Assembly (NCBI GenBank): GCA_036478235.1
Contig: JAZGDZ010000089.1
Location: forward strand, 3,105-67,104
Direction of reading: 5' to 3'
DNA length: 64,000 bases
DNA from: Acidimicrobiia bacterium
Lineage (GTDB): Bacteria; Actinomycetota; Acidimicrobiia; Spongiisociales; UBA11373
Within the stretch, counting starts at the first letter, position 1; each line of letters opens with the position of its first letter. The notes beneath the pieces were generated by a model that made no database searches, was not told the DNA's origin, and saw only the letters and a program-made list of their open reading frames with translations. This document shows, in pieces, positions 1 through 14,231 of this stretch. A program made the position numbers and the translations under genes.

Positions 1-1329
1 GTCAACTCACTGGTCTCCGCGGCACGGTCCGGAAAACAAGTTGTAGTCCTGGTCGAGCTCAAGGCCAGGTTCGACGAAGAAGCAAACATCGCCTGGGTCC
101 GCATCCTCGAGGAAGCGGGCGTGCACGTGGTATACGGCGTCGTCGGACTCAAGACCCACGCCAAGATCGCACTGGTCGTGAGACGGGAGGCCGGGGGGCT
201 GCGTCGCTACGCCCATATCGGAACGGGGAACTACAACCCGAAGACCGCCCGGCTGTACGAGGATCTGGGAGTGCTCACCGGCCGGGAGGAAATTGGGGCG
301 GACCTGTCCGAGTTGTTCAACGTCCTGACCGGCTACGCCCAACAGGCGGATTTTCGCCGCCTCCTGGTCGCTCCGGCCGGTCTCCGCTCCGGGATCATCG
401 ACCGCATCCGCGCCCAGGCCTCCCGGGGTACCGAGGGTCGCATCACGTTCAAGATCAACCACCTCGTCGATCCCGAGATCATCGACGAGCTCTATGCCGC
501 GTCCGCCGCCGGCACCCGCGTCGATTTGATGGTCCGTGGCATCTGCTGCCTGCGACCCGGAGTCGAGGGGCTGTCGGAGACCATCCGGGTGCGTTCCGTG
601 GTGGGCCGCCATCTAGAGCACTCGCGGATCTTCAAGTTCGGCGACGGTACCGATGCCGAGTATCTCATCGGCTCGGCGGACATGATGCCTCGCAACCTGG
701 ACGGAAGGGTCGAGGCGCTCGTCCCGATCGAGGAACCGATGCTGCAGGCCCGCCTCGAAGAGATCCTGGCCGTGGTGTTTGCCGACGATCGCCTGGCCTG
801 GGGGCTGCGCGACGACCGCTGGGACCGGGTGCCGACGGAGGCCGGGCTCAACTCGCACCTCCGCTTCCAGTCCCTCGCCCTGACGAGGGCGCAGGGGGCC
901 GAGCCCGACCCGGATCTGGCACTGGAAACGCCCGACGTCGTGGTCGCCGCCGGGGGAATCGTCACCAGGGGGCGGGATTCGGACCGGCCCGAGACCCTGG
1001 TCGTGCACCGCCCCGCCTACGACGATTGGTCGTTCCCCAAGGGCAAGGTCGATCCGGGAGAGCGCGAGGACGAGGCCGCCCTGCGCGAGGTCCGGGAGGA
1101 GACCGGACTGGAGTGCACCCTCGAGCAGGAGATCGGCAGCGTCGAGTACGCCGATAAGTCCGGCACCCGCAAGGTCGTGCGCTACTGGGCGATGGATCCG
1201 ATCGGGGGCGACTTCGAGCCGAACCAAGAAGTCGACGAGATCCGGTGGCTCGCGGCTTCCGCGGCGATCGATCTCCTCTCGTACGAGAGGGACCGCGCCC
1301 TGCTGCGCTCGACTATGGGCGCTGCATGA
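1..1329 (+). CDS. ppk: Polyphosphate kinase 1, C-terminal ~285 aa (5' end outside window), fused in frame to a C-terminal NUDIX hydrolase domain
   Basis: The frame is open from base 1. PPK1 motifs KQVVVLVELKARFDEE, HAKIALVVRRE and VGRHLEHSRIFKFGDG are present. With no intervening stop a Nudix box follows (GKVDPGEREDEAALREVREETG). Stop TGA at 1327-1329. Confidence 0.8.
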   Translation, partial: VNSLVSAARSGKQVVVLVELKARFDEEANIAWVRILEEAGVHVVYGVVGLKTHAKIALVVRREAGGLRRYAHIGTGNYNPKTARLYEDLGVLTGREEIGADLSELFNVLTGYAQQADFRRLLVAPAGLRSGIIDRIRAQASRGTEGRITFKINHLVDPEIIDELYAASAAGTRVDLMVRGICCLRPGVEGLSETIRVRSVVGRHLEHSRIFKFGDGTDAEYLIGSADMMPRNLDGRVEALVPIEEPMLQARLEEILAVVFADDRLAWGLRDDRWDRVPTEAGLNSHLRFQSLALTRAQGAEPDPDLALETPDVVVAAGGIVTRGRDSDRPETLVVHRPAYDDWSFPKGKVDPGEREDEAALREVREETGLECTLEQEIGSVEYADKSGTRKVVRYWAMDPIGGDFEPNQEVDEIRWLAASAAIDLLSYERDRALLRSTMGAA

Positions 1330-1781
1330 TCTACATCGTCCGCCACGTCCACGCCGGTAACCGGTCCAAGTGGTCGGGTCCCGACCACAAGCGGCCCGTC
1401 AGCCCGAGGGGGATCATTCAGGCCAAGGCCATCGCCGAGTACCTGGCCGACCGGGGTGCCCGTCAGATCTTCACCAGCCCCTACCTGCGCTGCATCCAAA
1501 CCGTTGCCCCGCTGGCGCATGCTCTCGGAGTCGGATACGTCGACCTCCCGGAACTCGCCGAGGGAGCGCCCCCCGAAGGGGCGGCAGCCCTGGTGCGCAC
1601 CGCCAAGCGGGGCACCGTCATCTGCTCCCACGGCGACGTGCTGCAGAGCCTCGTCGGCCACCTCGCTGCCCACGAAGCACCCATCGATCCCGACACCGAG
1701 ATCGAAAAGGGAGGTATCTGGCGGCTCAAGCTGGACGACGGGCGAGTTACGAAGGCCAAGTACGTACCGCCGATGAAGTAG
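1326..1781 (+). CDS. Histidine phosphatase family protein (SixA / phosphoglycerate-mutase-like; resembles the C-terminal domain of mycobacterial MutT1)
   Basis: Begins MIYIVRHVHAGNRS with the RHG catalytic motif and has a later SHGD motif. Its ATG overlaps the upstream TGA (ATGA). The upstream in-frame extension from 1245 is rejected. Confidence 0.7.
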   Translation: MIYIVRHVHAGNRSKWSGPDHKRPVSPRGIIQAKAIAEYLADRGARQIFTSPYLRCIQTVAPLAHALGVGYVDLPELAEGAPPEGAAALVRTAKRGTVICSHGDVLQSLVGHLAAHEAPIDPDTEIEKGGIWRLKLDDGRVTKAKYVPPMK

Positions 1782-1976: not shown

Positions 1977-2678
1977 ATGCGCATCCGGATTCTCACCAAC
2001 GCCGCCGCCCTCGCCGAGGTGGCCGCAGACGAGATCGCAGGCTGGCTCACGCGCCACGTCGACCGCACGATCGGCCTCGCGGGAGGCTCCACGCCGCGCC
2101 TGACCTACGAGCTGTTGGCCGATAGAACCGTCCCCTGGGAAGCCGTGCATGCCTGGATGACGGACGAACGTCACGTCCCCGAGAACCATCCGGAGTCGAA
2201 CGCCGGCATGGCCCGCCGGGCACTGTTCGACCACGTCCCGGCCACACTGCACGCCGTCCCGCACAACGAGAACCCGCAGGTGGCCGCCGCCGGATACGAA
2301 GAGATGCTGCGGCGCCTACTCGGCCCCACCCGCGGCGGCGGCCCACAGCCCGGGCTCGTCGTGCTCGGGGTCGGTGAGGACGGCCATACCGCCTCGCTGT
2401 TTCCGGGGTCGGCGGCCCTCGAAGAAAACGAGCGAGACTTCATGGCCAACTGGGTGGCAGACAAGGCCTCCTGGCGGCTCACTGCGACGCTGCCGCTGCT
2501 GGCGAGGGCTCGCCGCACCCTCTTTCTGGTGTCGGGCGAGCGCAAGGCTGGGGTCGTCGCCGAGATCCTGGAACGGAGCGCCGATCTCCCGGCGGCGGCG
2601 GTCCACCGTCTCGCCCGGGACTCGGTGTGGCTCCTGGACCGTGCCGCCGCCTCCGCCCTCTCCCAGGCGGGGACCTAG
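1977..2678 (+). CDS. pgl: 6-phosphogluconolactonase
   Basis: Motifs LAGGSTP, WEAVHAWMTDERHV and GEDGHTASLFPG are typical of the DevB/Pgl family. Confidence 0.85.
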   Translation: MRIRILTNAAALAEVAADEIAGWLTRHVDRTIGLAGGSTPRLTYELLADRTVPWEAVHAWMTDERHVPENHPESNAGMARRALFDHVPATLHAVPHNENPQVAAAGYEEMLRRLLGPTRGGGPQPGLVVLGVGEDGHTASLFPGSAALEENERDFMANWVADKASWRLTATLPLLARARRTLFLVSGERKAGVVAEILERSADLPAAAVHRLARDSVWLLDRAAASALSQAGT

Positions 2679-2840
2679 GAGTCTGCTGAGTGATGCCGTT
2701 GCTCATATCGGCGGCCAGGCGCGCCAGCCGCAAGGATCTCGGTTTCGCCACTCCTCATGCAGGAATGGCGGAACCGAGGACACCGCGAATGGCGATGATC
2801 TGGTCGTCGAGATGAGTGACATGTATTGCTCAGCGGGCTC

Positions 2841-3383
2841 TCAACCGTCCGAGGTGCTCGTCGTGCCGGAGCCATCAGAGGTGGTCGGCACCTCCGAGGT
2901 GCTCGACGTGTCGGAGCCGTCGGCGGTCGTCGTAGCCGTCGTCTCCGAAACCACCGAGGTACTGGATGTCGTCGGGGCTTCGAAGGTGTCGGTGGCCGGC
3001 TCACCCGTGAGTAGCAGCTCGAGCAGTCGCTCGCTGAGCGGCCCCTCGGGGTTCAGATCCGCTTCGGCAAACGCCCTCTCCTGGATCCCGGCAGGGTCAC
3101 ACCGCAGCGCCCGAACCCTGATGTCCAGATCACGCCCGGCCCGCTCCAGGTCGACGAGTCCCTCGGGCCACGCCTGGCGATCTGTGAACTCCCGCAGCAG
3201 GGTTTCGTCCAGTTCGGCGATCAAGTTCTCCAGGTACCGAACCGTGTCGGCGATGACGCGGTCGCACGTGTCATTCTCAATCGTCGTCGTCGTCGACGAC
3301 GTCGACGAAGTCGGCCCTGAGGCCGACGACTCGCACGCGGCCACGACGACAAGGAATACCGCCATTGCGGCACGGAGTCTCAC
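2841..3383 (-). CDS. Hypothetical acidic Ser/Thr-rich lipoprotein
   Basis: Signal peptide with lipobox (FLVVVAAC). Low-complexity S/T-rich termini. Same strand as the BMC operon and immediately downstream of it. Confidence 0.5.
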   Translation of the reverse strand: MRLRAAMAVFLVVVAACESSASGPTSSTSSTTTTIENDTCDRVIADTVRYLENLIAELDETLLREFTDRQAWPEGLVDLERAGRDLDIRVRALRCDPAGIQERAFAEADLNPEGPLSERLLELLLTGEPATDTFEAPTTSSTSVVSETTATTTADGSDTSSTSEVPTTSDGSGTTSTSDG

Positions 3384-3429
3384 TAGACGGCGAGATTACC
3401 TCCGGGCCGGAACTGCCCGGCCCCCTGGA

Positions 3430-3822
3430 TCACTCGTCGAAGAACCCGCCCTCGCCGGAACGCACACCCTCGAGGATGAACTGGCCGAAGACCGAATCGG
3501 CCGACAGGTCCCCGGCGCGGTTCGCCATCAGGGCCGCCATTTGCTCGTCCGAGCATCCCAGCTCGTCGGCGCGGGCGGTCAGCTCGTCACCCCGTGCCTC
3601 TACGTCGGCGAACACCTCAGGCGTCTCGTCGGATTCACCCAGAGCCGCCAGGGCCTCTATGTCGAGGTCGTCGATGATGTCGATCGTGTCCTGGAGCAGG
3701 GCGATGCCGGCGACCGCAAGCCCTTCACAGGAGTCGACCGACCCGGGATCGGCCGCATCGTCGTCTCCGCAGGTGGCGGTGACCAGTGCCATGGCGAGCA
3801 GGGCAACGGCGAGGCGTCTCAT
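3430..3822 (-). CDS. Hypothetical acidic lipoprotein
   Basis: Begins MRRLAVALLAMALVTATCG with a lipobox. Acidic helical composition. It starts 45 nt downstream of the last BMC-P gene. Confidence 0.5.
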   Translation of the reverse strand: MRRLAVALLAMALVTATCGDDDAADPGSVDSCEGLAVAGIALLQDTIDIIDDLDIEALAALGESDETPEVFADVEARGDELTARADELGCSDEQMAALMANRAGDLSADSVFGQFILEGVRSGEGGFFDE

Positions 3823-3867
3823 CGATCATTCCTTCGGTTCGGCTGCGGGGAGGTTACCGAGTTGGAA

Positions 3868-4158
3868 TCAAGCGATGGCGATCGAGTCACCGCCCACCCA
3901 GAGTTCGTCGATGATGCCCACGACCACGGCGCGGATGGGAGCGTGCGGATCGCCCACGATCTGACGGGCGCCGTTGCCCTCGTCGAGGATCAGCACCATC
4001 TCGCCGTGTCCGGCGCCGACGGCATCGACGCAAATCAGGTACCCGCCGGTGTCTTCGCCGGCCGAATCGAGCAGATCGCACATCAGCAGACGACGACCGT
4101 CGTAGATCGGATGGCTGATCGTCGACACGACCGTCCCCGAGATCCGCCCCAGCTTCAC
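3868..4158 (-). CDS. BMC vertex protein (BMC-P, EutN/CcmL/PduN family), paralog 1
   Basis: Begins MKLGRISGTVVST..., characteristic of EutN_CcmL. 96 aa. Overlaps the next gene by 4 nt. Confidence 0.8.
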   Translation of the reverse strand: MKLGRISGTVVSTISHPIYDGRRLLMCDLLDSAGEDTGGYLICVDAVGAGHGEMVLILDEGNGARQIVGDPHAPIRAVVVGIIDELWVGGDSIAIA

Positions 4159-4424
4159 GATCTGGAAACCTGATCGACGATCCCGACGATGGCGTGGTCC
4201 ACCGGGACGAACGGTTCCGGCATGGCCAGCGCTGCCTCACGGCTCCCCACGACGTAGACCAACTCCCCCGGCCCCGCCATCGCCACCGCGTCGGCTGCGA
4301 TCACCATGTCTCCTTCGGGGTTGCAATCGCGGTCGAGGGGCTGCACGACCAGAAAGCGAATCCCCTCCAGACCCTCGTACTTGACCGTTGCGACGAGCGT
4401 CCCGGTCACCTCAGCGAGCTGCAT
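4155..4424 (-). CDS. BMC vertex protein (BMC-P), paralog 2
   Basis: Begins MQLAEVTGTLVATVKYEGLEGIRFLVVQPLD..., an EutN/CcmL fold signature. Start placed at the internal Met; the arginine-rich upstream extension is rejected. Confidence 0.75.
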   Translation of the reverse strand: MQLAEVTGTLVATVKYEGLEGIRFLVVQPLDRDCNPEGDMVIAADAVAMAGPGELVYVVGSREAALAMPEPFVPVDHAIVGIVDQVSRS

Positions 4425-5013
4425 CGTCGTCCTCGCGGCCCATCCGAACAGAGAATCGGGAGTGATGGGTGAGGTTGTCGCCCATCTCGTCGTGGAGTTG
4501 CGGGATGACCGCGGAACCGACCAACTCGGAGTCGTCCACCCGACCCGAACCGATCTCCACAGCAGCCTCGACATCGGAAACGGCTCCGCCGAAGAGGAGA
4601 TAGGCCTTCCCGCCGAGGCCGTCGGCCAGGTTGATTTCGAGCAGGTCCACCGCGGCGCCCTTGAGTCCGGCGTCGGCCGCAGCCAGCACAGGTGCCACGG
4701 ACGCGGTCTCGATCACGCCCAGAGATTCGACCGGACCGGGAACTCGCATACCGCGTAGCGCCTCGACGACCCCGGGGTGGACGTCCAGAAGAACGATTTG
4801 GGCCACGAGTGACAACCCACCGATCTCGAGGCCTGCAGCGACCGACTCCTCGACGCTGGCCACATCGCCGGCCACCAGGACCAGGTACCTGCCCGGCTGG
4901 ACCGATCCGGCCACGAGGTCTCCGATCGGGGCACGCTTGACCATGGCGTCCCCGGCGACGATCCCAGTCGCCACCGAGTCAAACTCGAGCAGCCCGATGG
5001 CCGGGTTGGTCAC
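4411..5013 (-). CDS. Tandem-domain BMC shell protein (BMC-T, PduT-like)
   Basis: Starts with the canonical BMC motif AIGLLEFDSVATGIVAGDAMVKRA. A second BMC domain follows (SLGVIETASVAPVLAAADAGLKGAAVDLLEI). 200 aa. Confidence 0.7.
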   Translation of the reverse strand: MTNPAIGLLEFDSVATGIVAGDAMVKRAPIGDLVAGSVQPGRYLVLVAGDVASVEESVAAGLEIGGLSLVAQIVLLDVHPGVVEALRGMRVPGPVESLGVIETASVAPVLAAADAGLKGAAVDLLEINLADGLGGKAYLLFGGAVSDVEAAVEIGSGRVDDSELVGSAVIPQLHDEMGDNLTHHSRFSVRMGREDDDAAR

Positions 5014-6461
5014 ACGATCCTCAGGGCGCCCACGACCGCGATTCGGCGCTCCCGCGTGAAGGTGATCGGCCTCGTCATGCCGTCACCGCTCGGACTGGCG
5101 ATCGAGAACGAGGTGAACCCCTCCCCTCCCTGGCCGAGTCCGGCGTAGTTGGGGCCGTTGGCTATGAAGATGCTCACGTTGATGGATCGGGCCATCCGGG
5201 TGATGTTGGAGACGTCGTTCGAATGGATCGAGGCGGTGTGGCTGAAGCCGTGCTCCGACCGGATTGCCAGGTCGATTGCAGCATCGATGTCGGCCACGGC
5301 CGTGACCGGGAACACGGGCATCATCTGCTCCGTCCACACCAGGTTGTGATCGTTCGGGACCTGCGCCACCAGTAGTCGGGGGTCTCCGTCGACATCGACA
5401 CCGGCGGCCGCGGCGATGGCTCCGGCGTTCTTGCCGATCCACGAGCGGTTGATCACCCCGGGCCTCCCGGGGGGTCCCATCGAGTCGAAGATCACCCTCT
5501 CGACCTTCTTCAACTCGTGCTCTTTGAGTATGTGGGTGCCGTTGCGGCCCATTGCCCGCACCAGGTCGTCGAAGATCGACTTCACGGCGATCCCGGTCTT
5601 CTCGTCGGTGCAGACGACGTTGTTGTCGAACGATGCGCCGGCGACGATGTCTCGGGCCGCGCGCTCCACGTCGGCCGTCTCGTCCACAACGGCCGGAGGA
5701 TTGCCGGGACCCGCGGTCACCGAGCGCTTGTCGGTCTTGAGCGCCTCGCGCACGACTCCGGGGCCTCCGGTGACCAGCAGCACCCGGATCCCGGGATGCT
5801 GCATCAACTCCTGGGCGCTCTCGATGGTCGGCTCGGGGATCCCGGTCACCAGGTTCGGCGGCCCGCCGGCGGCCAGCACCGCCCGGTTGAGGAGGCGGAT
5901 GTTCTCCGCCGATACCCGCTTTGCGTTCGGATGGACGTTGAACACGACCGCGTTTCCCCCGCTGAGGATCGCGATGGTGTTGTTGATGATGGTCGATGTC
6001 GGGTTGGTGGTCGGGGTGATCGAGCCGATCAGCCCGAACGGGGCGTGCTCGGTGAGCATCATGCCGGCGTCGCCCGTCTCGATCAGCGGCTCGAGGTCCT
6101 CGGGTCCCGGGGTGCGGGTGGCGACGAGGATGTTCTTGCGCACCTTGTCTTCGGCGCGGCCGAGGCCGGTCTCCTCGTGGGCCATCGCGGCGAGGCGCTC
6201 CGCCTGATCGATCATCGCGGTCCGGATCGAGGCGACGACTGCAGAGCGGATCTCCAAGCCCATGGCCGTGTACGCCTTGTAGGCGCTCTCGGCCGCCTTC
6301 ACTGCTTCGCCGATTGTGGCGAACAGGCCCTCCCCGAGCTCCGCTTCGGGGATCTCCGCCGGAATGCGGGGATGCTCGGGAACGGCGTCCGGCGTGCCGC
6401 CGAGCCGGGTACGAACCCGGGCGATGATCTCGCGGATCTCTTGCTCGTCGAAGGCGCTCAC
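5010..6461 (-). CDS. CoA-acylating aldehyde dehydrogenase (EutE/PduP-like) with an N-terminal encapsulation-peptide-like extension
   Basis: Aldehyde dehydrogenase superfamily. N-terminal amphipathic segment [15 protein letters not shown] is followed by a Pro-rich linker. It sits inside the shell-protein operon. Confidence 0.8.
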
Positions 6462-6745
6462 TTCACGTACTTCACTTCACCGCCGACCTCCCAGGTGTCC
6501 ACGATCGCCATCACAACCGCGTCACAAGGCCGGTCCTTGGTCAGGACCGTCTGGCGGGCCGACGAACCGGTGGCGTACAGCACCACCTCACCGACCCCGG
6601 CACCGACGGCGTCGGCTGCGACGACGTATCCACCGGTCTCGGCCTGCTCGACGTCGAGCTGCTTGATCACCAGGAACTTGAGGCCCTCGAGGGTGTCTTC
6701 CTTCCTCGACGACACAAGCGTCCCGGCGACCCGTCCCAGAAGCAC
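6458..6745 (-). CDS. BMC vertex protein (BMC-P), paralog 3
   Basis: Begins [31 protein letters not shown]..., EutN/CcmL family. 95 aa. Confidence 0.8.
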
Positions 6746-6759
6746 GGGCTACCCCGTTC

Positions 6760-7062
6760 CTAGCTGGACTCCGCCTCGGCCTCTTCGTGACGGCCGAGCG
6801 GCATGACCAGATCGATGTTGGTGTGGGGACGGGCGATGAGGTGAGTGGCGACGACCTCACCGACCTTCTCGGCGCCGCGGATGCCGGCGTCGATCGCAGC
6901 CTTTACCGCGGCAACGTCGCCGCGAATGACCGCCGTCACATAGCCGCCGCCGGTCTTCTCGTACGACACGAGCTCGACCTTTGCGGCCTTCACCATCGCA
7001 TCTCCTGCCTCGACCACCGCGGCGAATCCGCGGCATTCGATCATCCCGAGTGCTTCAGCCAT
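6760..7062 (-). CDS. BMC hexamer shell protein (BMC-H, PduA/EutM-like)
   Basis: Matches the canonical single-domain BMC sequence MAEALGMIECRGFAAVVEAGDAMVKAAKVELVSYEKTGGGYVTAVIRGDVAAVKAAIDAG...ARPH. Confidence 0.85.
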   Translation of the reverse strand: MAEALGMIECRGFAAVVEAGDAMVKAAKVELVSYEKTGGGYVTAVIRGDVAAVKAAIDAGIRGAEKVGEVVATHLIARPHTNIDLVMPLGRHEEAEAESS

Positions 7063-7107
7063 GGGCTCTCGTTCTCCTTTTCGTTGTCAATCCTCCGGGC
7101 GGAGCCG

Positions 7108-7743
7108 CTAATTCGCCTCCGTGCCTTCGATGCCTTCGAGGCCTTCGAGCGCATCCACCGCGGCCCGCCAGCCGACGTCGATGTCCCGCTCCTCTCCCCC
7201 GAGATAGACCCTTCCCAGCGATCCGAACGAGCGGACCTCCAGGATGTTGATGTCGGCCGCCTTCTCGGCCTCGTTGGCGGCGAGGGCAGCGTAGGACGCC
7301 GGCTCCATCTCGAGCACATAGAGCGTCTGACCGGGAATGAGCATCTGGCCGTGGCGCATCCGGTTGATGAGCTGCGCCTGGTGGTCGTCGATCCGCCGGA
7401 TTATCTGCGATGAGGCGATGCGGGGCTTGACGCGATCGGTCTCCTCGTGGCCGATCTCCGACAGGATGGCCGCTCCGGCGGCGCGCACGTCGGCCTGTTC
7501 CGGTGAGTGGATCTCGAGCAGCCCGAAGTAGCGCTCGACGATTTGCATGCCCGGCTTGACATGGGTCGCCTTGAGAGCGATATCGGTGAGACGGTTGATC
7601 TCGATCCCTGGAGAGATCTCGACGTAGAGGCTGGCGTCGCCGGCGAGCGGGAGGAAACCCTGGGCGATCGTGCCCAGGAACGCCGCGTACTGCGGCTGGA
7701 GGCTGTCGAGGAACGAGTATCCCCGCAGGTCAATACCGGCCAC
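7108..7743 (-). CDS. Putative second tandem-domain BMC shell protein (BMC-T)
   Basis: 211 aa with two diverged BMC-like halves ([39 protein letters not shown] and [51 protein letters not shown]). Whether the domains are permuted (EutL/PduB-like) cannot be told from sequence alone. Confidence 0.55.
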
Positions 7744-8587
7744 TGGCTGTCCCTCCTGTCACGATCTCGATTCCGGCGGATGCTCCGATTCTGGTCGCAC
7801 CGGCCGCGATCATCTGTTTGGCGTCTTCGGCACTGCGAATCCCCCCGGAGGCCTTCACCCCCATGTCCGGCCCCACCGCCTCCCGCATCAGTGCCACGTC
7901 GTACACCGTCGCCCCGCCCGGGCCGAAACCGGTCGACGTCTTCACGAAGTGGGCACGGGCCCGGCGGGCGATCCGGGAGACAATCACCTTTTCGTCATCC
8001 TCGAGCAAAGCCGCCTCGATTATGACCTTGCACAACGCTCCCGCCTCGCGGCACGAATCCGTCACCCCGACGATGTCGCGCTCGACGAGCTCGTAGTCCC
8101 CCGACTTGAGAGCGCCGACATTGACGACCATGTCGATCTCGCGGGCGCCGTCGCGGATGGCGCGCCGCGCCTCCAAGGCCTTTACCTCCGGGGTGGTCGC
8201 TCCGAGCGGGAACCCGACAACGCAGCACGTCAGGACCTGGGACCCGCGCAGCCTCTCGGCCACCCTTTTCGCCCACGTCGGGTTGACACACACGCTGGCA
8301 AACCCGTACTCGATCGCCTCGTCGCACATCCGGTCGACCTCCGCCGCGGTGGCGTCGGGTCTGAGCAGCGTATGATCGATGAATCCGGCGAGGTCGCCGG
8401 GGACATCCGCCCCGTTTCCGCTGTACGAGACCCGGGCAGCGCCGGCGGCGATCACCGACCGCACCTTCTCCGAAGAGTGGGCGGCGCAGTCACCCACACA
8501 GGCGAGGTAGTCATCCCAGGCCTCGCCGGCGATGGCGGCAAGCACCTCCTGGGTGATGGCATCGACAAGTTGGTCGCGTTCGGTCAC
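7730..8587 (-). CDS. deoC: Deoxyribose-phosphate aldolase (class I, DeoC family) with a ~70-aa N-terminal extension
   Basis: DeoC core motifs [33 protein letters not shown] and FVKTSTGF. The N-terminal helix [17 protein letters not shown] resembles an encapsulation peptide. Confidence 0.8.
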
Positions 8588-9174
8588 GCCGTACTCCTCG
8601 CGTACTTGCTCTCGATGTCGTCGATCTTCTCGACCCTAAGCGCGTGGCGCCCCTCCCCCCAGGGAGTCGCCAGCCACGCCTCGACGATCTGCAGCGCCAG
8701 ATTCTCGCCGATCAGCCCGGCGCCCAGGGTCAGGACGTTGGCATGGTTGTGCTCGCGGCTGTTGCGCGCTGAGGAAACGTCGTAGCAGAGTGCGGCCCGC
8801 ACGCCGGGAACCTTGTTGGCCGCCATAGCCGACCCGATGCCGGCACCGTCGATCACTATCCCCCAGCGGCAACCTCCTCCCGCCACCTGCTCAGCCACCG
8901 CTTGGGCGAAATCGGGGTAATCGACCGACTCCGCCGAGTCCGTGCCGCAATCGACCACCTCGTGGCCTTGCTCGCGCAACCGGAAGGCGATCCGCTCCTT
9001 GAGCCGGAAACCCCCGTGGTCGGCGCCGATGGCGATCGCCTCGGTCTGACCCCCGGGCACCTCTTCGGGCGGTGGCGGAGGGGCCGACGCCGCTGGCGTG
9101 CGCCCCAGGTCGTCGACGATCTTCCCCACCAGAGCTCGGATCTCGTCTTCTCCGGGGACTTCAAGGCGCGGCAC
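8584..9174 (-). CDS. rpiB: RpiB/LacAB-family sugar-phosphate isomerase with an N-terminal encapsulation-peptide-like extension
   Basis: RpiB core motifs IAIGADHGGFRLKE, VVDCG and GAGIGSAMAANKVPGVRAA. It is preceded by EDEIRALVGKIVDDL plus an APPPPPEEVPGG linker. Confidence 0.8.
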   Translation of the reverse strand: MPRLEVPGEDEIRALVGKIVDDLGRTPAASAPPPPPEEVPGGQTEAIAIGADHGGFRLKERIAFRLREQGHEVVDCGTDSAESVDYPDFAQAVAEQVAGGGCRWGIVIDGAGIGSAMAANKVPGVRAALCYDVSSARNSREHNHANVLTLGAGLIGENLALQIVEAWLATPWGEGRHALRVEKIDDIESKYARSTA

Positions 9175-9242
9175 GCAGCGATTATCCCACGAAGAACCGC
9201 CGCGAGCCGGAGGCCTAGTCTCAAAACGAACGAAGGATCATC

Positions 9243-9851
9243 GTGGCAGACGACTCAGCCTTCATCTGGGACCGGCCGACCCCACAGGTGACGCCGCGAC
9301 GCCGCCCGCCTATCCCGGAATCCGCAGCCCCCTCGCTCGAAGGCAGGATCACACTTCGAGAGGCGGAGCACCGCTTCGGGGTTCGGGTCTCGACCCTCCG
9401 AGCCTGGTCACGCCGCGGGTCGGTTGATGCGATCCGAACGCCCGGGCCTCACGGCGAGCAATGGATGGTCACGACCGAGTCGGTGGCGCACCATCTCAGC
9501 CGTCGAGCACCCCGAGCCACACCGACCGACGCTCCCCGATCGACCGGGCCCACCGAGGACGGCACCGCGATGCTCGTTCCCCGCGACGCCTGGGACCGCC
9601 TCATGGACCAGCTGGGAAACCTGCACGAGGCCGGCATGAATCTGGCCGAGGCCCGGGAGCGGGCCGCCAAGGCCGAGACCGAGGCGACGTTCCTACGGGA
9701 ACGATTGACCGAGATGCGCTCGGAGCGCGACGAGCTGAAGGAGCAGGCGCGACCAACCCAGCCGGACGCCCGAAGTGCGCCGTCTCCCACCTCGGGGGGA
9801 TGGGATTCCTTCCGAAAGCGCTACGGCTGGCTGTGGAGACGGAGGCACTAG
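9243..9851 (+). CDS. MerR-like HTH transcriptional regulator with a C-terminal coiled coil, divergent from the BMC operon
   Basis: Helix-turn-helix segment ITLREAEHRFGVRVSTLRAWSRRG and a C-terminal heptad-like segment (LAEARERAAKAETEATFLRERLTEMRSERDELKE). GTG start. 68-nt divergent intergenic region. Confidence 0.5.
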   Translation: MADDSAFIWDRPTPQVTPRRRPPIPESAAPSLEGRITLREAEHRFGVRVSTLRAWSRRGSVDAIRTPGPHGEQWMVTTESVAHHLSRRAPRATPTDAPRSTGPTEDGTAMLVPRDAWDRLMDQLGNLHEAGMNLAEARERAAKAETEATFLRERLTEMRSERDELKEQARPTQPDARSAPSPTSGGWDSFRKRYGWLWRRRH

Positions 9852-9860
9852 CCTCGCTCG

Positions 9861-10775
9861 GTGCGCCTCAAGCATTGGACCCTCCTGCTCATCGCCGCCT
9901 TCGGGTGGGGGGCGGGGGGCGTGATCACCCGGGCCGCATTCAACGAAGGCCTGGACCCGGTCGGGTTCAGCGCCTATCGCTCAGCAGTCGCGGCGATCGT
10001 CGTGCTCTCTTACCGGCTCGCCCGACGAGGCCGGCTGGGGCTGGGGCGTCGCGCCTGGCGCGCCGGTGCGGTCCTCGGGACGATCAACCTCGCCGTGCCC
10101 TTCCTGCTGCTCACGATCGCCGTCTCCTTTGCATCGGCCGGGTTCGTAGGGCTGCTGGTGGCAAACATCCCGATCGGCACCGCCGTTTGGGCGCATCTCC
10201 TGGGTGAGGAGAAAATCGACGCGCCCAGAGCGGTCGGGCTGGGTGTCGCCTTGAGCGGGGTGATGCTCCTTCTGCTCTCCGGCGACAGCGGACTCGATGA
10301 GGGCGGCAACCCGACACTGGCGATAGGCCTGTCGCTGATCGGCCTCGCATTCGCCTCGTACTCGATCCTGTTCGCCAAGCGCGCCACCGCCACCCTCGAT
10401 CCGGTGTCCATCGCCGGGCCCCAGTTCGTCGTCGGGACCGGGCTCCTCTTGCTGCTGGTGCCGTTCACCGACGGCGTGCCCTCAGAGGTGACGACCGCCG
10501 GTTGGGCGCTCGTGGTGGCGGCGGGCCTCCTGTCCACCGCGCTGCCCTTCCTCGTGTTCTACACCGCTTTGCCCAACATCAGCGCGACCCAGGCGTCGCT
10601 GGTCGGCTACGTGGTACCGCTCGTCTCCATCGTGCTGGGGGTGGCCTGGCTGGACGAGCGGGTCACCGCCGCGATAGCCGCCGGAGGGGCACTGATCCTG
10701 GGGGGCATAGTCCTCGCCGATCGCGCCGCAGCACAGGGGCGTCCGGCCCCAACGATCACCGGGCAACCGGAGTAG
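9861..10775 (+). CDS. EamA/DMT-family transporter
   Basis: 10-TM profile. The sequence shows two repeated hydrophobic halves, as in duplicated EamA-domain (DMT) proteins. Confidence 0.7.
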   Translation: MRLKHWTLLLIAAFGWGAGGVITRAAFNEGLDPVGFSAYRSAVAAIVVLSYRLARRGRLGLGRRAWRAGAVLGTINLAVPFLLLTIAVSFASAGFVGLLVANIPIGTAVWAHLLGEEKIDAPRAVGLGVALSGVMLLLLSGDSGLDEGGNPTLAIGLSLIGLAFASYSILFAKRATATLDPVSIAGPQFVVGTGLLLLLVPFTDGVPSEVTTAGWALVVAAGLLSTALPFLVFYTALPNISATQASLVGYVVPLVSIVLGVAWLDERVTAAIAAGGALILGGIVLADRAAAQGRPAPTITGQPE

Positions 10776-10785
10776 CGTCCCGCCG

Positions 10786-11700
10786 GTGGCCGACACGTCC
10801 GTCCTCTCCATCACGGAACTGAGGTTCGCCTACGGTGACATCGTCGCCATCGACGGCATCACCCTGCAGGTGCCGAGCGGTCGCATCGGGCTGGTGGGAG
10901 CCAACGGGGCCGGCAAGACGACCCTGTTGAAGGTCCTGCTGGGAGTGCTCGAGCCCGCCGCCGGGACCGTCGTGGTCCTCGGCCACCCGGTTCCCCGAAA
11001 GACCCTCGAGGTGCGGTCCCGGGTCGGGTGGATGCCGGAAGACGACTGCCTTCCGCCCGATCAGACGGCGGCCGACTTCCTCGGATATGCCGCCGAGCTC
11101 GGCGGGCTCCCCGTCAAGGCGGCCCGCCAGCGTGCCAGCGACATCCTCAGCCTGGTGGGCCTCCACGAAGAACGCTTCCGCTACATGGGCGATTTCTCCA
11201 CCGGAATGAAGCAGCGTGCCAAACTCGCCCAGTCGATAGTCCACGACCCGGACCTCGTCCTGCTCGACGAACCCACCGCCGGGCTGGATCCCGAGGGTCG
11301 CGAGGAGATGCTCGATCTCATCAGGCGTTTCGACGATTTCGGGATCAACGCGGTCATCTCCTCCCACCTTCTCACCGACATCGAGTACACCTGCGACTGG
11401 GTGGTCATGCTCGACGGCGGCAAGGTGCTGCGATCGGGCCCGTTGACCGAGCTCTCCACTCCGGATGTCGCAGAGCTCGAGGTCATCGGTGACGCGCAGG
11501 CCGTGGCCCGCATCGCCCGCTCACTCGGAGCCGAGGTCACGGTCGACGACGACTCGCTGACTCTCACGGTCCCCGACGGCGATCCGTTCACGATCGCTCG
11601 CGACGCCGTCGTTGATGCCGGTGCTGCCTTCCGCAGACTCGGAGTCAAGCGGACCACGCTCGAGGACGTCTTCATGGCCGGGGGTGACACCGATGGCTGA
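10786..11700 (+). CDS. ABC transporter ATP-binding protein
   Basis: Walker A motif GANGAGKTTLLK. Signature and Walker B motifs present (LSGGMKQR-like FSTGMKQRA, LLDEPTAGLD). Confidence 0.85.
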   Translation: MADTSVLSITELRFAYGDIVAIDGITLQVPSGRIGLVGANGAGKTTLLKVLLGVLEPAAGTVVVLGHPVPRKTLEVRSRVGWMPEDDCLPPDQTAADFLGYAAELGGLPVKAARQRASDILSLVGLHEERFRYMGDFSTGMKQRAKLAQSIVHDPDLVLLDEPTAGLDPEGREEMLDLIRRFDDFGINAVISSHLLTDIEYTCDWVVMLDGGKVLRSGPLTELSTPDVAELEVIGDAQAVARIARSLGAEVTVDDDSLTLTVPDGDPFTIARDAVVDAGAAFRRLGVKRTTLEDVFMAGGDTDG

Positions 11701-12559
11701 GGGAGTGGTCTTCGACCTCGGGTACACGCCGCATGACGGTCTGCGGTTGGGAAGGTCCGGAGCCCGTAAGGCGCTGCTCAAGGATGGACTGCGTCGAGTG
11801 CTCGGGCTTCGCCGCAAGGCGCGCCGCAAGGTGCTGCCGGTGATCCTGATGGCGATCGCAGTCATGCCGGCACTGTTCTTCACTGCATTCGGAGTCATCA
11901 CCGGAGAGTTCGATGCAGCCGCGACCTTGTTCGACCACGAGAACTACTTCGATCTCAACGGAACAATGGCCCTCATCTTCGTGGCCCTCGCCTCCAGCGA
12001 ACTGCTCATCCCCGACCGGGTCAACGGGACGATGGCGGTCTATGCCTCACGGCCGCTGACGACCGCCGACTACGTGGCAGGACGGGCCGGGGCACTGGCG
12101 ATCGTCGTCTTTGCTTTTCTCTGGCTACCCCATGTCGTGCTCTTCATCGGACGCGCCTGGGTCGACGACGGCGGCTTCGGCTCCTACCTCGTCGACAACG
12201 CTGCGGTGATCTGGAAGACCGCTCTCGCCTCAATCGTCTACTTCGCCGGATACACCTCGATCGCATTCCTCGTCGCGGCGTTCTCGAAGAGGACTTCGGT
12301 CTCGGCCGGTGTGTACCTAGGGGTGGTCATGCTCTCCAATGCGACAGTCGAACTCGTCGACGCCGGGTTCTCAGTGTTCGGTCTCGGTGCGCTGCAGCAC
12401 CACCCCGGATACGTCAAGGACTGGATCCTGGGCACCTCCACGCAGACGTGGATCCCTGAGCAAGCGGGCATGGAACCGATTATGTCCCTGTTCGTCATCG
12501 TCGCCATGTCGGTCGCTGCTGGACTCATAGTCGTTGGCCGGTATAGGAGGGTGGCATGA
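11693..12559 (+). CDS. ABC-2 type transporter permease
   Basis: Multi-TM protein. Its ATG overlaps the preceding ATPase stop (ATGGCTGA). The upstream extension from 11612 is rejected. Confidence 0.55.
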   Translation: MAEGVVFDLGYTPHDGLRLGRSGARKALLKDGLRRVLGLRRKARRKVLPVILMAIAVMPALFFTAFGVITGEFDAAATLFDHENYFDLNGTMALIFVALASSELLIPDRVNGTMAVYASRPLTTADYVAGRAGALAIVVFAFLWLPHVVLFIGRAWVDDGGFGSYLVDNAAVIWKTALASIVYFAGYTSIAFLVAAFSKRTSVSAGVYLGVVMLSNATVELVDAGFSVFGLGALQHHPGYVKDWILGTSTQTWIPEQAGMEPIMSLFVIVAMSVAAGLIVVGRYRRVA

Positions 12560-13488
12560 CGGCATCGCCCGCCTTCGTCTCGGAGCCGACGGTCGTCGTC
12601 GACGGTCTCTCGAAGTGGTTCGGCCAGAAGGTGGCGATCTCCGACCTCTCCTGCTCGTTCGGGACCGGCATCACCGGGCTGCTCGGTCCGAACGGTGCCG
12701 GCAAGACCACCCTGCTGAGGGTCATCTGCGGCCTGCTCGGCCCGTCCGACGGATCGGTGAGAGTGCTCGACTCCGATCCCCGCCGGAATCCCGCTGTCTA
12801 CTCCGAGGTAGCGCTGGTTCCTGAGGAGGATGCCGTGTACGGATTCCTCACCGCCCGTCAGTTCGTCGGATACGCTGCCCGGCTCAGCGGAAGCCACCCG
12901 GACGCGGTCGACACCGCCATCGCCGAGGTGGACTTGCTCGACGCTGCCGATCGCCCCATCGCCGGCTTCAGCAAGGGCATGCGGCAGCGGGCCAAGGTGG
13001 CGGCTGCCCTTGTCACGAACGCCCAGATCCTGATTCTCGACGAGCCGCTCAACGGGACGGACCCGGTGCAGCGAGCGAAACTGATCGCCACGTTCCGCGG
13101 GCTCGCCGAGCAGAGGACCGTGATCGTGTCTTCCCACGTCCTCGCCGAGGTGGAACGCATGGCGGACCGGGTCCTGGCCATCGTCGACGGGAAGCTGGCC
13201 GCGGCCGGGGACGTCGCCGCCATCCGTCAGGCGATGTCCGACATCCCGTACCGGGTGCGGGTGGAGACCGACGCCCCTCGCCGGCTGGCCGGACCGTTGA
13301 TGGCGTCCCAGGATGTGAGCTCGGTCGCCGTGGAGGGACCGGTGCTCCACATCGAGACCTCCGATCTGAGCGCTCTGGGCCGGGCCGTGCCCCGGGTGGC
13401 ACGAGATTCGGGGATTCGGGTCACTGGCTTCGAGCCCGAGGACGAGTCTCTGGAGAGCGTGTTCCGCTACCTGGTGAGACGGCGATGA
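12556..13488 (+). CDS. ABC transporter ATP-binding protein (second pair)
   Basis: Walker A motif GPNGAGKTTLLR. Motifs FSKGMRQRA and LILDEPLNGTD. Confidence 0.85.
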   Translation: MTASPAFVSEPTVVVDGLSKWFGQKVAISDLSCSFGTGITGLLGPNGAGKTTLLRVICGLLGPSDGSVRVLDSDPRRNPAVYSEVALVPEEDAVYGFLTARQFVGYAARLSGSHPDAVDTAIAEVDLLDAADRPIAGFSKGMRQRAKVAAALVTNAQILILDEPLNGTDPVQRAKLIATFRGLAEQRTVIVSSHVLAEVERMADRVLAIVDGKLAAAGDVAAIRQAMSDIPYRVRVETDAPRRLAGPLMASQDVSSVAVEGPVLHIETSDLSALGRAVPRVARDSGIRVTGFEPEDESLESVFRYLVRRR

Positions 13489-14231
13489 AAGGCCAACTAG
13501 CCATAGTCAAAGTCACCCTCCGACAGCTGCTCGGAGGCAGGCGGATGATCATTCTCGGGCTCCTGGCGATGATTCCAGCGATCGTCGTCTGGCTCAGCAC
13601 CCGCAACCTGACCGGCTCCGCAATGTTCGATCGATACAACGACGGTGCGGTACCCACTCTCTTCCTGATCGTCGTGCCCATCTCGGCGATCGTCCTCGGT
13701 TCAGCGGCACTCGGAGATGAGCGCCGCGATGGAACACTCTCGTTTCTCATTGTCCGACCGCTCCGTCGCAGCTCCATCACCGCCGCCAAGCTGCTGGCAG
13801 CCTGGACCGCAGCAACCGCCGTAACGATCCTGTCCGGCGTCCTCGCCTCGGCCGCCTTGTCGGTGCGATCATCCGATTGGTCGACGCTGATTCCGACGGT
13901 CGTGGGAATCGCCATCTCGACCGCCTGTTACGCCTCCGTGTTCATGGTGGTTGGCCATCTGACGTCCCGCGCGGTGCTGATCGGCCTGGTCTACGTGTTC
14001 GTTTGGGAGTCGGGGATCTCGTTTGCGGCTCCCTCGCTCGCCAACGTGTCGCTGTTTCGAATCGGACTCACCGCATACACGGGCCTGCTTCCCGACTCTC
14101 GGTCGGCCCTGTCCGATCCGCTCGGCTCACTCGCCCCAGGGGCGGGTGGCGCCATCGCCAAGACCGCCCTACTCGGGATCCTCGCGGTAACCGTCGCGGC
14201 GGGCCTCCTCAAGCGACGCGACATCGCCTGA
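13485..14231 (+). CDS. ABC-2 type transporter permease (second pair)
   Basis: 6-TM hydrophobic protein. Overlaps the upstream ATPase by 4 nt. Confidence 0.6.
   Translation: MKGQLAIVKVTLRQLLGGRRMIILGLLAMIPAIVVWLSTRNLTGSAMFDRYNDGAVPTLFLIVVPISAIVLGSAALGDERRDGTLSFLIVRPLRRSSITAAKLLAAWTAATAVTILSGVLASAALSVRSSDWSTLIPTVVGIAISTACYASVFMVVGHLTSRAVLIGLVYVFVWESGISFAAPSLANVSLFRIGLTAYTGLLPDSRSALSDPLGSLAPGAGGAIAKTALLGILAVTVAAGLLKRRDIA

Follow-up and report, generated by a model that had tools for sequence, protein, structure and literature searches.

An Acidimicrobiia microcompartment operon of probable SPU3 type

The sugar-phosphate utilising (SPU) loci are among the commonest types of bacterial microcompartment (BMC), with 280 loci in 26 phyla. 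In the SPU3 loci catalogued by Sutter et al., 2021 (Supplementary Data 2; RBG_16_68_21, RBG_16_68_12), deoxyribose-phosphate aldolase (DERA), a CoA-acylating aldehyde dehydrogenase (AldDh) and an RpiB-like protein (RPI) are the only enzymes, AldDh and DERA carry N-terminal encapsulation peptides (EPs), and the shell genes are a single BMC-H, three BMC-P of which two are adjacent, a Tdp resembling CcmP, and a Ts with neither PduS nor a pore cysteine. RPI and DERA are fused in 12-20 of these loci. The only SPU with biochemistry is of another subtype, the SPU6 of Chloroflexi bacterium GWB2_54_36 (Dwyer, Sutter, Kerfeld, 2024; PMC11585597), whose DERA cleaves deoxyribose 5-phosphate (dR5P) in vitro and whose RpiB-like protein is inactive on ribose 5-phosphate (R5P) and forms a complex with DERA. 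The SPU-type "archaeal microcompartments" of Hodarchaeales, for which a role in DNA salvage was proposed and whose shell was reconstituted with EP-dependent cargo recruitment (bioRxiv 2025.11.08.687404), also have a DERA and AldDh core; reconstitution of an archaeal SPU-type shell is likewise described in PMC12747264. More distantly, in EUT and PDU a signature enzyme yields a volatile aldehyde that is consumed by an encapsulated acylating AldDh.

The window analysed here, a 64-kb stretch of DNA from an uncultured Acidimicrobiia bacterium, contains nine such genes, all on the minus strand between 3868 and 9174 (Table 1). Gene calls rest on Pfam and NCBIfam profile searches, with PDB matches added, and each of the nine has profile or PDB support far above chance expectation. 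This bears out an earlier note that described a complete shell set with three enzymes. The interval it gave, 2841-9851, does contain the operon, but the remainder holds two lipoprotein genes and a divergent helix-turn-helix (HTH) gene. Its wording "tightly overlapping" fits six of the eight junctions (overlaps of 4 or 14 nt) but not Tdp-to-H and H-to-P1, which are gaps of 45 and 14 nt.

Table 1. Positions of the operon genes and flanking features in the window, with the main evidence for each.
Feature	Position	Strand	Length	Evidence or remark
Lipoprotein genes, two, acidic	2841..3822	-	130 aa (3430-3822); 180 aa (3383-2841)	Signal peptide and lipobox Cys in sequence
BMC-P pentamer protein P3	3868..4158	-	96 aa	PF03319, E 5.9e-24; adjoins P2
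BMC-P pentamer protein P2	4155..4424	-	89 aa	PF03319, E 2.9e-23
BMC-Ts, single-layer tandem-domain trimer, PduT-like	4411..5013	-	200 aa	Two PF00936 domains, E 7.6e-33
CoA-acylating aldehyde dehydrogenase (AldDh)	5010..6461	-	483 aa	PRK15398, 592 bits
BMC-P pentamer protein P1	6458..6745	-	95 aa	PF03319, E 3.6e-28
BMC-H hexamer protein	6760..7062	-	100 aa	PF00936, E 2.7e-28, full domain; only BMC-H of the locus
BMC-Tdp, double-stacking tandem-domain trimer, CcmP-like	7108..7743	-	211 aa	NF053796 CcmP, 331.5 bits
DERA/DeoC deoxyribose-phosphate aldolase, SPU signature enzyme	7730..8587	-	285 aa	TIGR00126 equivalog, 265 bits (cutoff 117)
RpiB-like protein	8584..9174	-	196 aa	PF02502, E 2e-54, residues 47-184
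Extended -10 promoter element TGGGATAAT	9181..9189	-		Ends 6 nt before the GTG start codon of RpiB
HTH protein, candidate regulator of the operon	9243..9851	+	202 aa	Weak HTH_17/MerR Pfam matches

The published SPU3 description and the window agree on each feature compared: three enzymes only, N-terminal EPs, a CcmP-like Tdp, one BMC-H, a BMC-P triplet with an adjacent pair, and a Ts without pore cysteine or PduS. RPI and DERA are separate genes here, and the lineage adds to the catalogued description a divergent HTH gene and the downstream lipoprotein genes. Comparison with the catalogue, proposed in the earlier note, leads to the locus of Actinobacteria bacterium RBG_16_68_21, a different metagenome-assembled genome (MAG), which is labelled SPU3 and is a syntenic orthologue (proteins 60-91% identical, same order); its orthologue of P1 (95 aa) is "SPU3 (main)" in the BMC-P tree of Sutter et al. 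The class proposed in that note, SPU, and the core from dR5P through acetaldehyde to acetyl-CoA agree with each test made and with the literature (PMC8217296, PMC11585597), the finer placement being SPU3. Its view that no substrate or physiology had been demonstrated is outdated as regards substrate by the SPU6 work, and it overrated the novelty of a common class in which a close orthologue was already listed. With the subtype catalogued since 2021 and a partial test published in 2024, the locus is an ordinary new example. I consider it probable that this is a complete SPU3-type metabolosome operon working as set out below in shell, cargo, chemistry, cofactors, RpiB-like protein and transcription. 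As read from its genes, it would encode a protein-shelled bacterial organelle, used most likely for the breakdown of deoxyribose phosphate derived from DNA.

The nine-gene order is complete in all seven Acidimicrobiia MAG loci (of ten fetched) whose length covers it and in one Acidobacteriota MAG, and its first part is kept, as far as the contig ends, in two further MAGs, one of Planctomycetota and one unclassified. Might the locus nevertheless be SPU by resemblance only, and in fact an inactive relic or another BMC type, either HO-like or a metabolosome with an incomplete core? The HO shell of Haliangium ochraceum (5V74, 5V76, 5DIH) also has one BMC-H, a BMC-P triplet and a Ts (HO-T1) without a pore cysteine, the window Tdp scores 250 bits to 5V76 and 227 bits to 5V74, and the core contains neither a phosphotransacylase (PTAC) nor an NAD-recycling enzyme. 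However, HO has two Tdp paralogues and a main locus without DERA or RPI, whereas the window has one Tdp and both enzymes within the main locus, with EPs. With the SPU3 label on the catalogued orthologue, catalytic residues all intact, a frameshift-free cassette with 56-92% identity among Acidimicrobiia and Acidobacteriota, and 120 or more metagenomic clusters of DERA orthologues (at >=74% identity), I give this reading almost no credence.

By homology, the facets of the SPU3-type shell would be built from the one BMC-H, which is 88-92% identical among Acidimicrobiia and Acidobacteriota loci, and the vertices from the three BMC-P paralogues. P2 is 44% identical to P1 and 32% to P3, and its start is taken at 4424 (89 aa, as in the source record) rather than at the longest ORF start, 4574. 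The trimers would be a gated CcmP-like Tdp and a PduT-like Ts without a metal-binding pore. Of the shell proteins, whose calls the earlier note tied to profile thresholds, Tdp falls narrowly under the Pfam BMC gathering score (22.1 versus 24.5) and, at 331.5 bits, under the CcmP equivalog cutoff of 340 bits. Its assignment is nonetheless unambiguous from the match to the crystallised CcmP of the beta-carboxysome (4HT5; see also 5LSR), at 65% identity over 204 residues and 283 bits. The Glu-Arg gate is kept (Glu70-Arg71, read from the sequence), and a precomputed annotation adds PF27545 CsoS1D_N. CcmP, a proposed route for sugar phosphates or larger metabolites, belongs to a carboxysome, whereas the window Tdp belongs to a putative catabolic metabolosome. 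Ts matches PduT (3PAC) with 125 bits and has no pore cysteine, "svqpgry" in the window lying opposite "ticpgkf", so that Gln39 stands where PduT has its Fe-S cysteine.

The DERA of the window matches the PDB DERA 8QPS over residues 66-283 (264 bits), and D152, K187 and K216 are invariant in the alignment. Its 55-60% identity to characterised DERAs and its intact Asp/Lys/Lys suggest that it is an aldolase acting on dR5P. The 65-residue N-terminal extension begins with an amphipathic helix (3-20), also present in the AF2 model, followed by C30-x3-C34-x2-H37, a Cys/His motif partly degenerate in this copy; residues 22-41 and 48-61, most of the extension past the helix, have pLDDT <50. AldDh matches the BMC acylating AldDh 5JFL (396 bits) with "SFDNN..C" kept and catalytic Cys284 intact, and begins with an EP (helix about residues 5-21, then a Pro-rich linker). 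The RpiB-like protein likewise starts with an EP-like helix (about residues 9-25) before a Pro-rich linker (26-45); its best 15-residue stretch, 11-25, reaches a hydrophobic moment of 0.58, which exceeds the 95th percentile for 15-mers of the core. The helices are kept among orthologues of the cargo proteins, the RpiB-like one included, and the linkers vary. Read as encapsulation peptides, helix and linker would package all three proteins inside the shell. SPU6 is similar in its small operon with RPI adjoining DERA, its three BMC-P, its EP-bearing RPI and its DERA (extension of roughly 70 residues, conserved D/K/K), but its AldDh is of a EUT3-like clade with a C-terminal EP, its Tdp is of the "blue" clade rather than CcmP-like, and Ts is absent.

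[quoted passage not shown] The called genes of the window include no PTAC, PduS, alcohol dehydrogenase, TPI or deo genes. Unlike EUT and PDU, then, the locus has no EutBC, PduCDE, PduL/Pta, alcohol dehydrogenase or PduS, so that internal cofactor recycling is missing. The Hodarchaeales loci also differ: they possess PTAC and MNdh/PduS, their Ts has a Cys pore, their DERA is fused to a flavoprotein, and a BMC-P bears a DNA-binding IDR, all features that the window lacks. Since phosphotransacylase, alcohol dehydrogenase and PduS are absent from the 64 kb and the Ts pore carries Gln, CoA/acetyl-CoA and NAD+/NADH would have to pass through the shell, and the gated pore of Tdp, roughly 14 Å wide, is the most plausible route. 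That Tdp is the acetyl-CoA exit in SPU types without PTAC is a hypothesis of Dwyer et al. (PMC11585597).

The source of the substrate is unsupported, because genes for deoxynucleoside or dR5P supply (deoA/B/D, transporters) are absent from the 64 kb. The same lack of nearby deo or nucleoside-uptake genes, and the reversibility of the DERA and acylating AldDh reactions, would suit an organelle not meant for DNA or deoxyribose catabolism at all, but one running in reverse to make dR5P from G3P and acetaldehyde, the latter derived from acetyl-CoA, or serving as a general sink for acetaldehyde made elsewhere. This is very unlikely, as the known metabolosomes of the same AldDh family are all catabolic, DERA is the sole aldehyde producer of the locus, as metabolosome signature enzymes are, bacterial deoxyribose comes via ribonucleotide reductase, and a sink needs no encapsulated DERA conserved over 26 phyla.

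What, then, does the RpiB-like protein contribute to deoxyribose-phosphate breakdown? Against 3HE8 (165 bits), "givi-D-gag" of the window lies opposite "givi-C-gtg": the catalytic Cys is replaced by Asp109 and the Thr/Ser by Ala111, substitutions from which I conclude that, judged by sequence, it is not a ribose-5-phosphate isomerase. Cys66 is likewise Asp in all SPU RPIs (Dwyer et al., 2024; PMC11585597), SPU6 included. Most likely, it is a DERA-bound partner that supplies an encapsulation peptide. A purely structural role, however, is hard to square with the strict conservation of the pocket. Among 30 sequences (45-85% identity), six of nine active-site positions fall within the 20 invariant columns of 152 (hypergeometric P about 1.6e-4, hand-computed) and the other three are nearly invariant; D52, H53, H142, N143, R176, H177 and R180 are invariant or nearly so in about 30 loci of many phyla. 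These phosphate-binding and ring-opening residues suggest that sugar phosphate binding is retained.

Might it instead be an active isomerase, with Asp109 as catalytic base and not R5P but another sugar phosphate as its substrate (for example G3P/DHAP or some other triose or tetrose phosphate, or else a rare pentose phosphate), so that the organelle's substrates are wider than or different from dR5P alone? Asp109 and Ala111 are fixed in DeoC-adjacent copies across the same loci, whereas housekeeping paralogues have Cys/Ser at 109/111. Such housekeeping copies occur on the same contigs, so the SPU paralogue is specialised rather than decaying. In addition, M. tuberculosis RpiB functions with a carboxylate base, and the TPI of SPU1 and SPU4 is missing from SPU3. 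Yet the activity of SPU6 RPI on R5P is negligible and DERA kinetics are no better in the complex, dR5P itself cannot undergo aldose-ketose isomerisation, an alternative substrate is still to be named, LacA, with Asp at the same position, is the non-catalytic partner of LacB, and ligand binding alone explains the conserved pocket equally well. An isomerase is thus a rather unlikely alternative to the DERA-bound partner.

Transcription would probably start at the RpiB start codon, driven by the conserved extended -10 element, and the mRNA is probably leaderless. TGNGATAAT occurs once in the 64 kb, at this element, and the 12-mer CGTGGGATAATC has exactly one copy in each of nine Acidimicrobiia loci (9/9), just upstream of the RpiB start. 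The divergent HTH protein may control the operon; the SPU6 regulator, in contrast, is GntR/UTRA. The window protein has a winged HTH of HTH_17/BldC/Xis-like type at 35-88, followed by a linker, a helix of 56 residues (114-169) and, at the C-terminus, a basic aromatic helix; its AF2 model (pLDDT 80) has BldC and mycobacteriophage Xis as top Foldseek matches, at E 0.04 only. Of 1813 homologues, the best 120 are mostly about 190-200 aa. The HTH gene is divergent from RpiB throughout, even where identity falls to 56-59%, and the gene on its far side varies, but it is missing from the Acidobacteriota copy of the cassette, and lineage synteny instead of regulation could be the cause of the linkage.

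Whether the two lipoprotein genes, which follow P3 on its strand after 45 nt, belong to the operon is uncertain. Neither protein has a Pfam match in the profile search, and only 38 homologues were found. The genes are not present downstream of P3 in the Acidobacteriota locus, while all Acidimicrobiia relatives with contigs reaching that far have one or both there, on the same strand. The mature proteins have a pI of 4.05 and are extracytoplasmic, and are therefore not cargo.

A cassette of nine minus-strand genes occupies 3868-9174 of the window, and profile and PDB matches for every one of them confirm what the earlier note had proposed, that shell proteins and three enzymes are encoded together in one real operon. 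Third-position GC of the nine open reading frames is 0.79-0.89 in a sequence of 67% GC, which is typical of real genes at that composition. The interval originally proposed, 2841-9851, holds the operon but also takes in a pair of downstream lipoprotein genes and, on the upstream side, a divergent HTH gene. Likewise, the description of the genes as tightly overlapping applies to six of the eight junctions (overlaps of 4 or 14 nt) but not to the remaining two, which are gaps of 45 and 14 nt.

Features of the SPU-type operon, its surroundings and the rest of the window. The nine operon genes come first, in order of transcription from the RpiB-like gene to BMC-P P3.
Feature	Positions	Strand	Product and evidence
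RpiB-like	8584-9174	-	196 aa; PF02502, E 2e-54
DeoC/DERA	7730-8587	-	285 aa; TIGR00126 equivalog, 265 bits vs cutoff 117
BMC-Tdp	7108-7743	-	211 aa; CcmP structure matches
BMC-H	6760-7062	-	100 aa; PF00936
BMC-P P1	6458-6745	-	95 aa; PF03319
CoA-acylating AldDh	5010-6461	-	483 aa; PRK15398, 592 bits
BMC-Ts	4411-5013	-	200 aa; two PF00936 domains
BMC-P P2	4155-4424	-	89 aa; PF03319
BMC-P P3	3868-4158	-	96 aa; PF03319
DERA N-terminal region with Cys/His motif	8390-8587	-	DERA residues 1-66
DERA C-terminal barrel segment	7730-7800	-	14 residues
Extended -10 element	9181-9189	-	
Upstream region with partly palindromic stretch	9175-9242		
HTH gene	9243-9851	+	202 aa
Lipoprotein gene	3430-3822	-	
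Lipoprotein gene	2841-3383	-	
PPK-NUDIX gene	1-1329	+	829 aa; extends left of the window (L001 15133-17622)
Histidine phosphatase	1245-1781		
6-phosphogluconolactonase-like gene	1977-2678		
Type II DMSO-reductase-family cluster	25054-32827	-	

Five shell proteins score above the Pfam gathering threshold: the BMC-H, one of the two tandem BMC-T and all three BMC-P paralogues (P1-P3). The double-stacking tandem protein (Tdp) falls just under the Pfam BMC threshold (22.1 against 24.5), yet it shares 65% identity over 204 residues with CcmP, a beta-carboxysome protein of known crystal structure (4HT5; 283 bits). CcmP is its top match in both NCBIfam and PDB, the Haliangium shell proteins 5V76 and 5V74 are also near, and the Glu-Arg gate is retained. 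In the single-layer tandem protein (Ts), alignment places Gln39 ('svqpgry') at the position of the PduT Fe-S ligand Cys38 ('ticpgkf'). The three BMC-P are 32-44% identical to one another, P2 and P3 adjoining (3868-4424) and P1 lying apart.

SPU loci are defined by a DeoC-type aldolase, an acylating aldehyde dehydrogenase (AldDh) and at least three BMC-P, in most cases joined by an RpiB-type protein, and 280 of them have been catalogued from 26 phyla in seven subtypes (Sutter et al., 2021; PMC8217296). Subtype SPU3 is described as having AldDh, pfam01791 and pfam02502 as its sole enzymes, N-terminal encapsulation peptides (EPs) on AldDh and DERA (the DeoC aldolase), one BMC-H, a BMC-P triplet and a CcmP-like Tdp, and its phyla include Actinobacteria (PMC8217296). 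The window locus contains a DERA (pfam01791) with the catalytic Asp/Lys/Lys, an AldDh (pfam00171) and an RpiB-type protein (pfam02502) with Asp at the position of E. coli Cys66. These are its only enzymes, and the called genes of the window include no phosphotransacylase (PTAC), PduS, AlcDH or TPI. The EP of AldDh is at the N-terminus, the Tdp falls in the CcmP-like clade, and the Ts has no pore cysteine, with no PduS in the window. The Tdp of RBG_16_68_12 carries the catalogue label 'SPU3 ccmPlike'. Furthermore, the locus of Actinobacteria bacterium RBG_16_68_21 (L010) is syntenic with that of the window, its proteins being 60-91% identical, and its 95-aa BMC-P, the orthologue of P1, appears in the shell-protein trees of 2021 as 'bmcType=SPU3 (main)', with the label 'viridian2'. 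This feature-by-feature match and the SPU3 label of a syntenic locus together settle the SPU3 assignment. The reading as an SPU-type metabolosome thus stands, all SPU features sought in the sequence having been found, and comparison with the curated catalogue, which the earlier note had suggested as a check, agrees with it in both description and label. As one more example of a catalogued subtype the locus is ordinary, since publications already cover its type, its subtype and a close orthologue.

Other microcompartment types were rejected. SPU6 has a C-terminal EP on AldDh, a blue-clade Tdp and no Ts and is confined to Chloroflexi, whereas here the EP is N-terminal, the Tdp CcmP-like, a Ts present and the host a member of the Acidimicrobiia. 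HO-type loci have two Tdp paralogues and a main locus devoid of DERA or RPI (the RpiB-like protein), whereas here the Tdp is single and DERA and RPI open the operon. As for PDU, EUT, GRM and RMM, their signature enzymes are absent: Pfam matches of the locus and the rest of the window include no diol dehydratase, ethanolamine ammonia-lyase, glycyl-radical or aminoacetone/aminopropanol enzyme. The match to Pdu, Eut, Grp or RMM that would have spoken against an SPU locus therefore did not arise.

Activity of DERA on deoxyribose 5-phosphate (dR5P) and a DERA-RPI complex are known only for SPU6, whose DERA and RPI were expressed by Dwyer, Sutter and Kerfeld (2024; PMC11585597). Relieved of its N-terminal extension, that DERA was soluble, dimeric and active on dR5P, and the RPI co-purified with it at roughly 1:1 (PMC11585597). 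The RPI, in which Asp replaces E. coli Cys66 ('in all SPU RPIs'), was essentially inactive on ribose 5-phosphate, and the authors propose that it is a packaging partner and that PTAC-less SPU types export acetyl-CoA through the Tdp pore (PMC11585597). Shell formation is known only for an archaeal SPU-type system, which was reconstituted with EP-dependent cargo recruitment (2025 preprint, bioRxiv 2025.11.08.687404). A full-text literature search turned up no SPU for which physiology has been studied in vivo. The claim that neither substrate nor physiology had been demonstrated thus holds for the organelle in cells but not at the enzyme level, where SPU6 DERA cleaves dR5P (PMC11585597).

The proposed core pathway from dR5P through acetaldehyde to acetyl-CoA is upheld by intact D152, K187 and K216 in DERA and Cys284 in AldDh, and by the activity of the SPU6 orthologue on dR5P. 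Inside the shell, DERA would split dR5P into G3P and acetaldehyde, and AldDh would convert the acetaldehyde to acetyl-CoA, making NADH. Because the window holds no recycling enzyme and an Fe-S cluster has no place in the Ts pore, both CoA/acetyl-CoA and NAD(H) would have to cross the shell, and the gated Tdp, as the only pore of suitable size, would be their route. The DERA chemistry is demonstrated for an orthologue; encapsulation, cofactor traffic and the physiological source of dR5P are inferred. Few microcompartment types are as widespread as SPU, and each well-resolved locus helps to define the minimal functional set. With three cargo and six shell proteins and no cofactor-recycling enzyme, this SPU3 cassette is close to the smallest form of a complete metabolosome. 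It is thus well suited to clean reconstitution in a heterologous host, and it could serve to test CoA and NAD traffic through the gated Tdp pore.

The window DERA is 55-60% identical to characterised DERAs, with D152, K187 and K216 invariant in the alignment, and matches PDB 8QPS at 264 bits; its PDB and Pfam matches begin at residue 66. AldDh matches 5JFL at 396 bits, and the structural match, which includes the catalytic Cys284, begins at residue 30-45. In both enzymes the region of homology is preceded by a conserved amphipathic helix and a variable Pro-rich linker. The helix of AldDh has 16 residues and that of DERA, at residues 3-20 in the AF2 model, begins an N-terminal extension of ~65 residues that is kept in BMC-linked DERA orthologues and absent from stand-alone DeoC such as that of locus L018.

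In DERA, a Cys/His motif, C30-x3-C34-x2-H37, follows the encapsulation helix and precedes the aldolase barrel. CxxxCxxH is present in 118 of the 120 close DERA homologues listed, 61 of which have an extra Cys at -3 and 22 a His at -4 instead. Four-Cys versions (CxxCxxxCxxxC, CxxCxxCxxC) occur in other phyla, and the extensions of Spirochaete and Firmicute DERAs have no such motif. The fullest form in related lineages is CxxCxxxCxxHC, which I take to be ancestral, and relatives at least 74% identical have CxxCxxxCxxH or CxxxCxxH. The window DERA keeps only C30, C34 and H37, with Tyr27 and Ser38 at the other positions. The motif has the look of a site for a metal or an Fe-S centre, partly degenerate in the window; the AF2 model is uninformative here, residues 22-41 and 48-61 being at pLDDT <50. 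Text searching turned up no mention of the motif in Dwyer 2024 or in the Hodarchaeales preprint. A phmmer search with the 66-residue extension module against 1.84 billion representatives gave 28 matches, and the four that were read revealed it on no other enzyme, being DERA N-termini or frameshifted or chimeric fragments. Separately, a 13-residue stretch of the extension resembles a segment of the C-terminal barrel of the same protein, and the pattern [IV]xxGAxR[IV] recurs in the DERA extensions of other phyla. The likeness may reflect a partial internal duplication or a strand docking onto the barrel.

In the RpiB-like protein, Asp109 aligns with the Cys of 3HE8. Asp occupies this catalytic-Cys position in 31 DeoC-adjacent copies (30 unique, 45-85% identical), whereas three housekeeping copies keep Cys. 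Invariant columns number 20 of 152 in the DeoC-adjacent set, and six of them are active-site positions (D52, H53, D109, H142, R176 and R180; hand-computed hypergeometric P ~1.6e-4); A111, N143 and H177 are almost invariant. Housekeeping RpiB on related contigs has Cys at 109 and Ser at 111. The enrichment of active-site positions among invariant columns argues that the RpiB-like protein still binds a sugar phosphate and that its role goes beyond a purely structural one. In L001, the fetched locus that extends the window to the left, a housekeeping RpiB of 152 aa, whose catalytic positions hold Cys and Ser, is encoded at 17637-18095, adjoining the polyphosphate kinase gene, ~1.2-1.6 kb left of window position 1 and ~8 kb from the BMC RpiB-like gene. 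With this gene on the same contig, the organism keeps a normal R5P isomerase beside the Asp variant.

A reading that joins the two features, and that I consider improbable, is that both the RpiB-like pocket and the DERA Cys/His cluster are functional rather than structural in SPU3. The RpiB-like protein would then act as an isomerase or as an allosteric sugar-phosphate sensor, and a metal or Fe-S centre held by the DERA extension would couple the organelle to redox state. The setting is a subtype devoid of PduS, PTAC and a Cys-pore Ts, and both features are conserved and unexplained. If true, this would be a second, undescribed layer of SPU biochemistry. The value of the locus lies in a compact target for reconstitution and in small leads (the RpiB-like pocket, the Cys/His motif, the promoter and the HTH gene), and little in discovery.

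When one genome per species was scanned, ten MAG loci from Acidimicrobiia emerged. The nine-gene order is identical in all seven that are long enough, and the three shorter ones agree to their contig ends. An Acidobacteriota MAG (L012) has the same nine genes in the same order at 9436-14719, with 56-88% identity and with neither the HTH gene nor the lipoprotein genes, as would be expected had the SPU3 operon moved horizontally as one unit. A Planctomycetota MAG and one unclassified MAG share the first part of the order, as far as their contigs reach. SPU3-bearing Acidimicrobiia contigs also hold Ni-SOD and F-type ATP synthase. Close DERA orthologues are numerous in metagenome collections, and this abundance, together with the distribution in Acidimicrobiia, bears on the idea that environmental DNA is recycled by SPU organelles. 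The closest syntenic copy (L002, CAXMOL010000106.1; most proteins 75-91% identical) is binned as 'uncultured Kiloniellaceae', an alphaproteobacterial family. It also carries the flanking HTH, EamA, lipoprotein and Pgl genes and is probably a mis-binned Acidimicrobiia contig.

Only the alignment of orthologous upstream regions revealed a conserved extended -10 element, TGGGATAAT, which ends 6 nt upstream of the GTG of the RpiB-like gene; a generic sigma-70 scan of 2600-9900 gave no promoter. The 12-mer CGTGGGATAATC occurs once per locus, just here, in nine Acidimicrobiia loci. A conserved -10 element abutting the GTG suggests that the operon mRNA is probably leaderless, and it confirms use of the EP-bearing start codon. 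Just upstream of the element, a GC-rich, partly palindromic stretch, CCTCCGGC...GGCGG, could be an operator; a repeat search of the divergent intergenic region gave only short, unconvincing dyads. A terminator scan of 2600-9900 gave nothing convincing in the interval that separates P3 from the lipoprotein genes, and an Rfam scan of the whole window matched no riboswitch or leader RNA.

The HTH gene encodes an HTH_17/BldC/Xis-like winged HTH followed by a 56-residue helix. In Acidimicrobiia it is always divergent from the SPU3 operon, and it stays beside the RpiB-like gene even at 56-59% identity, its far-side neighbour varying; its product is a candidate regulator of the operon. A Foldseek search with the model matched only the 50-residue wHTH (BldC, Xis; E ~0.04) and gave no whole-length structural match. 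The public record annotates only the last 93 codons of the gene (9570-9851), and homologues of 190-202 aa cover the full ORF. Beyond P3, the two small lipoproteins are very acidic (pI 4.05), have two further conserved Cys and are weakly alike (26% over 61 aa). One or both of their genes follow the last BMC-P on the same strand in all Acidimicrobiia relatives with a long enough contig, and the family is tiny, with 38 homologues and no Pfam match.

The remaining window is housekeeping, with F-type ATP synthase, SHMT, RF1, Rho and 2-oxoacid:ferredoxin oxidoreductase, as well as a molybdopterin oxidoreductase cluster, Ni-SOD, MurJ and ABC transporters. Its called genes include no PTAC, PduS, Adh, TPI or deoA/B/D. 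The type II DMSO-reductase-family cluster resembles ethylbenzene dehydrogenase or a periplasmic Nar-like oxidoreductase: besides a molybdopterin subunit of 1149 aa it encodes 4Fe-4S and EB_dh haem subunits, together with a chaperone of the NarJ-like kind (Nitrate_red_del). At the left end, a polyphosphate kinase joins PPK1 domains to a C-terminal NUDIX hydrolase domain, a fusion that to my knowledge is unusual, and its gene is followed by those for a histidine phosphatase and a 6-phosphogluconolactonase-like protein.
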